Virus record (IMG/VR): IMGVR_UViG_2737471860_000002
Coordinates: 1-26,886 of that record
Length of the DNA stretch: 26,886 nucleotides
Strand: one strand, 5' to 3'
Source of the DNA: a virus
Lineage: Duplodnaviria > Heunggongvirae > Uroviricota > Caudoviricetes
Shown here: positions 1-2,011 of the stretch, piece after piece
Numbering within the stretch: the stretch's first letter is position 1
Layout: every line of letters begins with the position of its first letter
Position numbers and translations under genes: made by a program
The notes under the pieces: generated by a model
What the model was told of the DNA's origin: nothing
What the model saw: only the letters and a program-made list of their open reading frames with translations
The model's database searches: none

Positions 1-481
1 CTGCCATTTCTGCAGCCAGTTCTTCAGCATTCTTTACATGCTCTGCAATCGCTTCTGCTTTCTGCCGTATTTCCACAGCGATCGTTTCTGTATCCAGACG
101 GGACTGTTCAGCAGCGTTCGCCTGTTCTCCGGCTTTTTCTGCGTCTTGCTGTGCCTGTTGTGCCAGCTCTTCGAATTTCTTCAGGGCTTCCGGACGAAGG
201 TCGATATCGGTTGCGCCAAGGAAATCATTCAGCGAACCGTCTGTTGAATCTTCATAAACGCGAATAACACCAATTTCTGAAAAGCGCTGTGTGCTCTGTG
301 TCAGGCGAACACTGTACACGCCAGGCAGAACGGGGAAGTCGTATTCACCGCTCTGTGTGGTGATGTGACTGAAAACACTCTTCAGAATCCCTGCACGGTT
401 GTGCAGGGAGGTCAGTGTAATGGTTGCGCCACCCAGCGGCTCTCCAGTGGGTGTTTTAATCACACCTTTAAGCTGCGGCAT
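1..481 (-). CDS. Second tail fibre gene, 5'-partial in window (start codon at 481, open to the left edge); N-terminus resembles the lambdoid side-tail-fibre N-terminal domain
   Basis: My own translation of the reverse complement from ATG at 481 to position 1 gives 160 codons with no stop (MPQLKGVIKTPTGEPLGGATITLTSL...RVYEDSTDGSLNDFLGA...). Pattern resembles the Stf-type N-terminal domain. Not in the ORF track because no stop lies in the window. Overlaps the tfa stop by 14 nt. Confidence 0.55.
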   Translation of the reverse strand, partial: MPQLKGVIKTPTGEPLGGATITLTSLHNRAGILKSVFSHITTQSGEYDFPVLPGVYSVRLTQSTQRFSEIGVIRVYEDSTDGSLNDFLGATDIDLRPEALKKFEELAQQAQQDAEKAGEQANAAEQSRLDTETIAVEIRQKAEAIAEHVKNAEELAAEMA

Positions 482-1013
482 CTGGACGCTCCGGCCAGTC
501 GATGGCGTTATATGTGGCTTTATCAGTAATCGTGCTTAAATCCATCGCCTGTAATTCCTTTGCGTAAATGCGCCAGGCTTTCAGGTTTTCTTTATCTTCG
601 TCGCTGATTAACCCCAGCAATAAATCCTTTTCCCACTCGCCGGTCATGATGCTGACCTGTTTTAACAGGGCGTCGCGCTCGTCTTCCGCTTTTAGTTTGT
701 AGTCGAAAACAAATTCATCATTGCGGTAAAACCAGAAGCCCGGCGCAGTAATACGACGGTTAGCGGTAATATCCGGGAGTTCAATGATGCTGACGTTAGT
801 GGGTTCGATACCTGTCACATCCTTACCAACCCACACCACACGCCCTTTTTCGTTGTAGGCCACTTTTATGGTGTCGCTGGCAAAATTCTTCTGTTCTTCA
901 TACCAGTTTTTGCCGTCCTCCGAAAAAAGCCAGACAATACTATGCCGCTTTGTCATCTGATATTGATCTGCCGTTTTCGGATTACCCGCAGTAATATTTT
1001 TTAAATGAAGCAT
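468..1013 (-). CDS. Tail fibre assembly protein (Tfa/Mu U-like chaperone)
   Basis: 181-aa ORF directly downstream of the fibre gene; C-terminal ...AWRIYAKELQAMDLS...IDWPERP resembles the conserved Tfa C-terminus. Confidence 0.65.
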   Translation of the reverse strand: MLHLKNITAGNPKTADQYQMTKRHSIVWLFSEDGKNWYEEQKNFASDTIKVAYNEKGRVVWVGKDVTGIEPTNVSIIELPDITANRRITAPGFWFYRNDEFVFDYKLKAEDERDALLKQVSIMTGEWEKDLLLGLISDEDKENLKAWRIYAKELQAMDLSTITDKATYNAIDWPERPDAAA

Positions 1014-1015
1014 TG

Positions 1016-2011
1016 TTATACACTCGCTGCGTTATACCATGTGCCGTTAATTAATTTCTGAAGGGGTCTTGAATACAGCTTTAGTGACGTTGACGGATGA
1101 ACATCACCACCAACCACGACATATCCTGAAGGAACGGTAAAATCATCGTCATAGTGCCCGTCGACCCTCTGGCTTCCCAGCCTCATATCCTGTACGCCAG
1201 TAGCGGTGATGGTGATATCACCGGTGCCATCAAATGGCACATTGTTAATCCTGCGGGCCGTCTGAAGCCGGGTTGCCGATACAGCATTACTGTTCGCAGG
1301 AAGCGCACCTACTTCCGATGCTGTCGGCTTGTGCGCAGTGGTGTATATCTGCGCCCAGGGTGACCAGTTTGCCGCTGCATTATCACGTTTTGAGCGGATA
1401 TAAGCCGGGGCATGTGCGCCATCCGTGCCACTCCAGCCAATCAGCAACTCGCCTTCGCCGGGGGCTGACGCTCCCTTCAGATGCAGAACGTTACCGTACT
1501 GTATGGGATAATTATTATTGTAAGCCTCATACATCTGAAGCCCTGCCACACCCTGCTGAGTGCCGCTTAATGCAGTCACCCTGCCTTTTGATAAAAGGGT
1601 GTCTGGTGACAGGCCAATTGCTTTAATAAATTCACTGGCGCTGTTTTTTCCAAGAATACCGCGCACAAAAGCACTGAGCGGCGTTAATGCCATTGTGTCT
1701 TCGCCCGTAAAATACGGGAACGTATTATTCTGACCGGTTAATCCGGCAATAGCTCCGGCTGAACCACTGTTCGTAATAAACAGTTTTTTCAGCGCCGTCA
1801 TAATCTGGTCGGTGGTGTTTTTATCCGGTTTGATATTTGCCTGCCGGAGAATTTCCAGCAGTTCAGACTGAATAATATTAAACCAGTCCGGCCCCGGATA
1901 GGTGGGCGGAATACCGTTCCCGCCTTCGGTGAAATAAAGCGTTGTTTTGCTTAATTCAGCTGCGACAGGTGGCATTACCGGTACACCCGTCGGATTATCC
2001 ACATGAAACAT
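1016..2011 (-). CDS. Tail fibre protein
   Basis: 331-aa ORF after the baseplate genes and before tfa; Gly/Ser/Thr-rich C-terminal region typical of receptor-binding fibres. Confidence 0.6.
   Translation of the reverse strand: MFHVDNPTGVPVMPPVAAELSKTTLYFTEGGNGIPPTYPGPDWFNIIQSELLEILRQANIKPDKNTTDQIMTALKKLFITNSGSAGAIAGLTGQNNTFPYFTGEDTMALTPLSAFVRGILGKNSASEFIKAIGLSPDTLLSKGRVTALSGTQQGVAGLQMYEAYNNNYPIQYGNVLHLKGASAPGEGELLIGWSGTDGAHAPAYIRSKRDNAAANWSPWAQIYTTAHKPTASEVGALPANSNAVSATRLQTARRINNVPFDGTGDITITATGVQDMRLGSQRVDGHYDDDFTVPSGYVVVGGDVHPSTSLKLYSRPLQKLINGTWYNAASV

Follow-up and report, generated by a model that had tools for sequence, protein, structure and literature searches.

That unrelated phages exchange tail fibre segments horizontally has been known for a long time, and several virion structures bear on how such fibres are held on the particle. 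In the Mu virion, the N-terminus of the fibre protein gp49 (S) docks on a loop of gp48, with one fibre per baseplate wedge (PMC11915804), and SfMu retains the G segment (PMC4406740). In Ur-lambda, whose tail is non-contractile and whose side tail fibre (Stf) gene follows J, 12 StfN domains form a collar round the bare tail tube where gpV meets gpM (PMC12617516). In the Vibrio myophage XM1, gp40 binds gp4/gp5, which are the proteins of head completion and the terminator (PMC10457771), and A-1(L) gp82N binds the neck gp5 ring (pentadecamer; PMC10966104). Proteins of the PfN-PCoil-Col type have been described in lambdoid/Stx prophages (PMC3368898). A tandem fibre cassette ending in a PF08400-type fibre gene and a DUF4376 gene has been present in sequenced genomes since phiP27, and our literature search found no paper that gives its function or places a PF08400 fibre on a contractile-tail virion. 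Here we analyse such a module at the left end (positions 1-2011) of a 26,886-nucleotide (nt) stretch of DNA, hereafter the window (IMG/VR record IMGVR_UViG_2737471860_000002), in which genes for a first tail fibre (fibre 1) and a Tfa-type assembly protein are followed by a second fibre gene (fibre 2). The window corresponds to contig JWZI01000119.1 (assembly GCA_000818995.1), which ends inside the fibre 2 open reading frame (ORF).

Comparison of this locus with its relatives shows two independently anchored fibres with conserved N-terminal anchors and exchangeable distal modules, and no inversion apparatus. As an explanation of the whole, we consider it likely that these genes form a non-invertible tandem two-fibre host-recognition module of a Mu-like prophage. 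Window positions 1-2011 form the distal end of its late operon. The prophage is Mu-like and transposable; its early and middle genes in the window include Gam, a gp11 C-terminal domain, GemA, Mor and an endolysin, its head and neck genes include gp27, a Mu portal, the gpT major head protein and gp36, and its tail and baseplate genes include sheath, tube, a DNA-circularisation protein and homologues of gp44-gp48. No J, L or K homologue lies upstream of fibre 2; Mu-type sheath, tube, baseplate, fibre 1 and Tfa genes stand there instead.

The preliminary description of this DNA had reported two co-directional fibre genes and a Tfa gene, with the second fibre gene overlapping the tfa stop, and all these particulars are borne out by coordinates, strands and domains (Table 1). 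Domain searches likewise identify both flanking products as fibres, fibre 1 through phrog_1833 ('tail fiber protein', 2.2e-71) and fibre 2 through PF08400 ('prophage tail fibre N-terminal', 1.4e-27). The gene for fibre 1 begins 4 nt past the gp48 gene (2599..2015), and the fibre 2 ATG, preceded at 7 nt by a GGAG (492-489), overlaps the end of tfa by 14 nt (468-481). The identical 14-nt overlap is present in the annotations of two sister prophages, L085 and L087, and suggests that translation of the two genes may be coupled. Between fibre 1, tfa and fibre 2, promoter- or terminator-like sites did not exceed the expectation from shuffled sequence.

Fibre 1 yields no match in a Pfam search, but its origin can be read from its parts. 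Residues 1-81 align with residues 1-81 of Mu S (PDB 5yvq/9ki1; phmmer, 5.7e-29; 37% identity by BLASTP, 2e-23), and the gp48 homologue of the window matches Mu gp48 in PDB 9ki1 (phmmer, 1e-22). Since docking between these two partners is known in Mu, fibre 1 is best regarded as a baseplate fibre, and the gp48-family wedge protein is, by homology with Mu gp48, its probable docking partner. Further along, residues 127-260 share about 62% identity with Sv, the variable part of the P7/P1 S fibre, the last 60 residues are 44% identical to the Mu S tip, and the DNA at 865-1079, which spans the fibre/tfa boundary, is 74-78% identical to that of P2-like Yersinia and E. coli phages; fibre 1 is thus a mosaic. 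Its Tfa matches PF02413 (Caudo_TAP, 4.6e-25) and phrog_136 (1.1e-59) and is 72% identical to L55 of phiP27. We compared the module with four sister prophages from complete E. coli genomes (L085, L086, L087 and L001), across which the gp46-48 chassis proteins are 92-100% identical to those of the window. The fibre 1 anchor (residues 1-85) is 93-100% identical in L085, L086 and L087, fibre 1 of L001 is shortened, and the shaft ranges from 39 to 74% identity among the sisters. The tip and Tfa vary together: in L087 the tip is 95% and Tfa 91% identical to the window's, and in L085, L001 and L086 the corresponding values are about 30% and about 35%. This co-variation indicates that Tfa belongs to fibre 1 and not to the downstream gene.

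Fibre 2 continues well beyond the window. The leftward ORF might have terminated after a few more codons, and it does not: two sibling contigs, which match the window exactly over the first 481 nt of the gene, carry it to 399 and 458 codons, still open. A full length of about 520 amino acids (aa) is implied, because an IMG/VR contig supplies the C-terminus (...LFLRVK), which is followed by a 203-aa DUF4376 gene. In the sibling contigs, the protein passes from an StfN domain to an Ala/Glu/Gln-rich coiled coil, a collagen-type Gly-X-Y stretch (residues ~305-370) and a small globular head; a contig scan with the 458-aa form returned only collagen-repeat matches from unrelated bacteria. The lambdoid Stf-type N-terminus assigned earlier to this fibre is upheld by the PF08400 match and by phmmer similarity to the StfN of Ur-lambda (PDB 9e7m, 2.9e-10); PF13620 (2.9e-8) and the XM1 collar spike gp40 (7kjk; phmmer, 2.2e-6, residues 3-143) are also matched. 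An AlphaFold2 model of residues 1-160 (predicted local distance difference test, pLDDT, 84) consists of a six-strand beta sandwich (residues 3-75), a linker and one long helix, unbroken over residues 98-159 (pLDDT 80-96). The two best Foldseek hits to this model are XM1 gp40 (7kjk_A3, ranked first, E 6.5e-7) and Ur-lambda StfN (9e7m_Ta, TMt 0.84), followed by mycobacteriophage Bxb1 tail-tip chains and an A-1(L) cyanomyophage neck-fibre chain. The N-terminal domain is accordingly modelled as a transthyretin/immunoglobulin (Ig)-like beta sandwich of the collar type.

This anchor is under purifying selection. Across the sister prophages StfN retains 88-97% aa identity, including those in which identity of the upstream tfa falls to 35%, and codons 1-110 of fibre 2 differ by 25-26 synonymous and 3-4 non-synonymous codon changes. 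E. coli and Salmonella have many intact fibre 2 homologues, 640-780 aa long. The conserved anchor, the synonymous excess, the retained 14-nt start and the abundance of intact homologues together argue for a selected, chassis-linked function of fibre 2.

The distal part of fibre 2 has a different history, and the boundary between the two can be placed to the nucleotide. In a DNA search, the fibre 2 head turned up in two IMG/VR contigs and in eight complete genomes of E. coli; the best match among these genomes lies in a lambdoid prophage where J is followed by Stf (573 aa), DUF4376 and DUF1353. The first ~153 codons of fibre 2 share only about 30% protein identity and 40-75% DNA identity with that lambdoid Stf. 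From nt 462 of fibre 2 (codon 154, window coordinate 20), the sequence becomes identical to the stf of E. coli GXU-23-25-310; the exact run extends for 333 nt, and only 19 mismatches occur over the 915 nt to the end of L002, the longest sibling contig. The sister Mu-like prophages show the opposite pattern, with 90-93% DNA identity to about nt 420 and no alignable sequence beyond. The exact lambdoid identity distal to the junction indicates that the receptor-binding part has been exchanged between a siphovirus-type and a myovirus-type prophage. It also supplies the simplest explanation of the assembly break, since the window ends 20 nt into the lambdoid-shared stf segment; the sibling contigs break further along the same stretch, and breaks in the fibre 2 gene are in all probability repeat-induced. 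A search of a word index of 5.8 billion proteins with the 95-aa head (L002 11630-11908) gave no relative. However, blastn finds the same head at 87-94% identity in annotated Stf genes of the eight complete genomes, so the negative result reflects the sensitivity of the index and not the absence of relatives. The earlier suggestion of a mosaic module of different origin is therefore sustained at the nucleotide level, but it does not extend to the Stf-type N-terminus as a recent lambdoid import: StfN is conserved within the Mu-like lineage and only ~30-43% identical to lambdoid StfN, and only the part distal to codon 154 is lambdoid-identical.

The same layout recurs in related genomes. Window positions 1-2700 gave a match of any kind in 281 of 5426 genomes and matches of at least 80% identity in 136 records, and each of the best 25 E. 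coli matches carries baseplate J/gp47, YmfQ (gp48), a fibre, a tail fibre assembly protein and a PF08400-type fibre protein. At four inspected E. coli loci, fibre 2 gives way to DUF4376 (when intact) and then to com and mom, after which the prophage ends, and gin is absent; in L087, com-mom directly follow a fibre 2 remnant. A four-gene cassette of fibre, Tfa, PF08400 fibre and DUF4376 also follows the baseplate genes in phiP27 (L54-L57), Rac-SA53 and pPE4, the fourth gene being DUF4376 in every case tested. When 80 IMG/VR StfN loci were sorted by their upstream marker genes, 50 had lambda-type J/L/K genes upstream and 17 had myovirus baseplate J/I genes there. In this latter context tfa is directly upstream in 16 of the 17 loci, and DUF4376 follows in each of the nine loci whose sequence extends at least 2.3 kb further. 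The tandem two-fibre layout is standard for this prophage lineage and for phiP27-type phages, and not unusual. The preliminary description had seen two fibres flanking one chaperone; its gene order holds, but the unit is better described as two fibre-accessory pairs, fibre 2 having its own DUF4376 gene in relatives.

We propose that the DUF4376 protein may serve fibre 2 as an accessory protein or chaperone, because it invariably co-occurs with fibre 2 and because PHROG family 11571 matches both accessory types: the N-terminal part of the window Tfa (profile positions 17-103) and DUF4376 proteins (profile positions 83-221; 84-219 for their C-terminal part, as in L085 4568-5137). This family may combine a Tfa-like N-terminal and a DUF4376-like C-terminal part, the two overlapping only at positions ~83-103. 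The pattern itself suggests natural fusions or chimeras of the two accessory-protein types.

From these elements a working scheme for the module can be proposed. Fibre 1 and Tfa are the equivalents of Mu S and U; the N-terminus of fibre 1 would be docked on the gp48 wedge protein and its tip folded by the Tfa encoded downstream, with tip and Tfa swapped as one unit. Fibre 2 would be translated from the same late transcript, from the ATG inside the end of tfa, and would form a separate trimeric fibre in which a collar/Ig anchor leads into a coiled coil and then, in this strain, into a collagen-like stretch, with a small receptor-binding head at the end; the accessory gene of its own that comes next in relatives is DUF4376. 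Both fibres would be made constitutively and mounted on the same particle, enabling dual receptor recognition, and host range would change by recombinational swapping of distal parts and not by Gin-type inversion. The distal part that fibre 2 has here was acquired from a lambdoid prophage stf, or is shared with one. Within this scheme, the docking site, the function of DUF4376 as a chaperone, the expression of both fibres together and their incorporation into the virion are inferences.

Several points weigh against the scheme. The window holds only 160 codons of fibre 2, and the remainder of the protein and the downstream gene are reconstructed from sibling contigs and relatives; the contig end also stops short of any invertase or inverted second cassette that this strain might carry. 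Fibre 2 is annotated as truncated or as a pseudogene in three of the four complete-genome E. coli relatives inspected, and the gene is often decaying in resident prophages. Finally, the lambda-type collar wraps a bare tail tube, a surface that is covered by the sheath in a Mu-like tail.

This last point bears on where fibre 2 might be mounted. We tentatively favour a neck (collar) fibre ringing the adaptor/terminator region at the head-tail junction, because the tube is sheathed, because the single gp48 loop is expected to be taken by fibre 1, and because the sites in XM1 and A-1(L) are on the neck. Comparison by sequence of the candidate neck proteins (the gp36 homologue and the protein at the gp37 position) with XM1 gp4/gp5 revealed no similarity and is uninformative. 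Nearly as likely is a second baseplate-level fibre, with StfN attached to the wedge periphery, to the sheath-baseplate junction or to fibre 1. The gene stands at the end of the baseplate/fibre block and appears translationally coupled to tfa, and two sets of baseplate fibres on one particle have precedents in A-1(L), with a long and a short set (PMC10966104), and in Sf14 (PMC11821841). In addition, the same fold anchors fibres at the tail-tip end of siphophages (lambda, Bxb1), and Ig-like domains can evolve new partners. Against a baseplate site, Mu offers one docking loop per gp48 wedge, which the fibre 1 N-terminus would fill (PMC11915804), and both solved myophages that anchor a fibre by this fold (XM1 gp40, A-1(L) gp82N) use the neck. 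Docking on the fibre 1 shaft in particular is difficult to reconcile with the variability of that shaft, given how strongly StfN is conserved. The subtype of StfN was also considered as a sign of chassis-specific docking and was dropped: the phiP27-type StfN (76-78% identity) occurs as well in the second tandem Stf of lambdoid loci.

A further alternative, which we regard as unlikely, is that fibre 2 could be non-functional cargo, a captured lambdoid stf fragment that stays outside the virion and is decaying. The truncated or pseudogenised copies in several E. coli relatives, the distal part identical to lambdoid stf and the original definition of the domain family in lambdoid phages (PMC3368898) would all be compatible with such a fate. 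However, the N-terminal domain is a distinct lineage-specific subtype with 88-97% identity and a 25:3 ratio of synonymous to non-synonymous differences, the 14-nt coupled start is conserved, and intact proteins of 640-780 aa are numerous; moreover, the cassette is kept in phiP27, isolated as an Stx2e-converting phage, and in 16 further IMG/VR loci of myovirus context.

With respect to inversion, the preliminary description had set the module apart from the invertible G segment of Mu, and the window agrees with that distinction. The fibre genes and tfa lie on one strand here and in all relatives inspected. A search of the 26.9-kb window for the gix/hix consensus, with 3 mismatches allowed, found 0 sites (0.12 expected by chance), no resolvase or invertase is encoded anywhere in it, and no gin lies between fibre 2 and com-mom in the complete relatives inspected. 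A scan for inverted repeats in the window, L085 and phiP27 gave no meaningful repeat; the longest, of 27 nt with 78% complementarity (2132-2158 / 2848-2874), falls inside gp48/gp47 coding sequence and was taken as chance. Although the contig stops inside fibre 2, leaving the downstream DNA outside the window, and related phages often carry systems for fibre inversion (Gin, Cin, Pin; PMC4406740), a Mu-like switch beyond the contig end, with an inverted alternative fibre 2 tail and an invertase, is highly improbable given these results, the run of fibre 2, DUF4376, com, mom and prophage end without an invertase in complete relatives, and a lambdoid repeat that fully accounts for the contig break.

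Table 1. Features of the window's left end and the adjoining wedge gene
Feature	Coordinates	Strand	Details
gp48/YmfQ-family baseplate wedge protein	2015..2599	minus	PF10076 Phage_Mu_Gp48, 6.2e-32
Fibre 1 gene	2011..1016	minus	331 aa
Fibre 1 codons 1-85, Mu S (gp49)-type N-terminal anchor	1757..2011	minus	lineage-conserved
Fibre 1 codons 86-270, variable shaft and receptor-binding region	1202..1756	minus	
Fibre 1 codons 271-331 and stop, distal tip travelling with Tfa	1016..1201	minus	
Tfa gene	1013..468	minus	181 aa
Tfa (Mu U / lambda Tfa family), which chaperones fibre 1 assembly	468..1013	minus	PF02413, phrog_136
tfa/fibre 2 junction	468..492	minus	GGAG 492-489, ATG 481-479, tfa TAA 470-468
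Fibre 2 gene (third ORF)	ATG 481-479, open through coordinate 1	minus	160 codons, begins MPQLKG
Fibre 2 codons 1-95, Stf-type 'collar' domain, predicted virion anchor	197..481	minus	PF08400
Fibre 2 codons 98-160, beginning of the coiled-coil shaft (rich in Ala/Glu/Gln), truncated by the contig end	1..190	minus	
First 20 nt of segment common with lambdoid prophage stf	1..20	minus	junction at coordinate 20

Several observations on neighbouring genes and related loci stand apart from these arguments. At the position of the Mu tail terminator gp37 (11862-12407, minus strand), the window encodes a P2 gpS-family protein (PF05069, 4.8e-15). In phmmer searches of PDB chains this protein had no match, the solved terminator of Mu included, and the gp36 homologue matched the Mu and JBD30 adaptors only. 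With gp36 resembling that of Mu and the gp37-position protein not, the neck of this lineage differs from the Mu neck. In L087 (E. coli E300082, 7795-10964), the YmfQ/gp48 gene is enlarged (975 nt instead of 585), an extra gene for a 352-aa hypothetical protein precedes a 356-aa fibre, and fibre 2 is a 339-nt remnant.

Some related loci carry more elaborate fibre regions. Three lambdoid IMG/VR records (L105, L106 and L113) have two PF08400 fibre genes in tandem after J, at ~6040 and ~9000; the first StfN is of the lambda type and the second of the phiP27 type, and in L106 the second is followed by DUF4376. In two other IMG/VR records, L119 (1250-11555) and L134, four to five fibre-sized genes are interleaved with genes of ~165-180 aa, the arrays starting with a fibre plus a Tfa 81-86% identical to the window Tfa and ending with an StfN fibre and DUF4376; tandem fibre cassettes can thus be extended well beyond two. 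The Actinobacillus phage vB_Apl-pPE4 (L091) and the Escherichia phage Rac-SA53 (L092) have the same order and sizes of genes in the fibre region, an antirepressor insert included, and almost identical StfN domains, which is surprising for phages whose attributed hosts are Actinobacillus and E. coli. Two loci were set aside: L101, the sole locus where a window-type StfN stands outside any Mu context that can be recognised, proved a rearranged remnant and was left uninterpreted, and L088, an Sp18-like insert of Mu type in Stx phages, differs in its fibre region.

If the proposed scheme is correct, a widespread Mu-like lineage has given up the Mu inversion switch for two fibres that are encoded constitutively and exchange their distal parts by recombination, with lambdoid prophages of the same host population among the partners. 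This bears on the prediction of prophage host range and on fibre engineering, because anchor and receptor-binding modules separate cleanly at defined junctions, and on draft assemblies, whose contigs break exactly at shared fibre segments. An answer on the docking site would extend the structural work on Ur-lambda, XM1 and Mu. Should attachment be at the neck, common enterobacterial temperate myophages of the Mu-like and phiP27-like types would carry an unrecognised second adsorption organelle, and one portable cassette of collar domain, fibre and DUF4376 would be common to siphophage tail tips and myophage necks, its receptor-binding part shared at up to 100% identity.

Among described systems, the S-U region of Mu resembles the window module in its position after gp47-gp48, in the homology of the fibre 1 N-terminus (residues 1-81) and tip to Mu S, in a Tfa of the Mu U family and in the com-mom genes that follow in relatives. 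The Mu order is, however, S-U-U'-S'-gin-com-mom, whereas the window module has no constant/variable split at gix, no U'-S' pair and no gin; its second specificity would come from an independently anchored, co-directional fibre with an unrelated N-terminus. The fibre cassettes of phiP27 (L54-L57), Rac-SA53 (tail1-4) and pPE4 (gp67-70) have the same order after baseplate J/I-type genes: a fibre of ~330 aa or more, a Caudo_TAP protein, a PF08400 fibre and a DUF4376 protein of ~188 aa. Yet phiP27 is an integrase phage and not transposable, its chassis proteins are only 25-34% and its StfN only 36% identical to those of the window, and a 23-nt gap separates its tfa from fibre 2 where the window has a 14-nt overlap.

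The Stf of Ur-lambda (PDB 9E7M/9MGH) has in common with fibre 2 the N-terminal fold (38% identity, TMt 0.84) and, after a flexible linker, a trimeric coiled coil, and lambdoid Stf also has the identical distal part from codon 154. In the window's lineage, unlike Ur-lambda, the tube is sheathed, the gene comes after a Mu-type fibre/Tfa pair, and relatives use DUF4376 and not Caudo_TAP downstream. E. coli collagen-like proteins of the EPclA type (PfN-PCoil-Col-PfC) have the order of PfN, coiled coil and collagen Gly-X-Y seen in fibre 2 of the sibling contigs, but the fibre 2 head has no PF06820 match, and the window itself holds only PfN and the start of PCoil. XM1 gp40 (PDB 7KJK) and A-1(L) gp82 come from contractile-tail phages and likewise anchor a fibre or spike through an N-terminal Ig-like domain of the same fold and a trimeric coiled coil; their proteins have been located on the neck, whereas for fibre 2 the neck is a proposed site, and the distal domains differ. 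Seen against these systems, the window module is an ordinary member of a recognised, uncharacterised module, to which it usefully adds a nucleotide-exact lambdoid/Mu-like junction at the contig end and the hypothesis of attachment at the neck.

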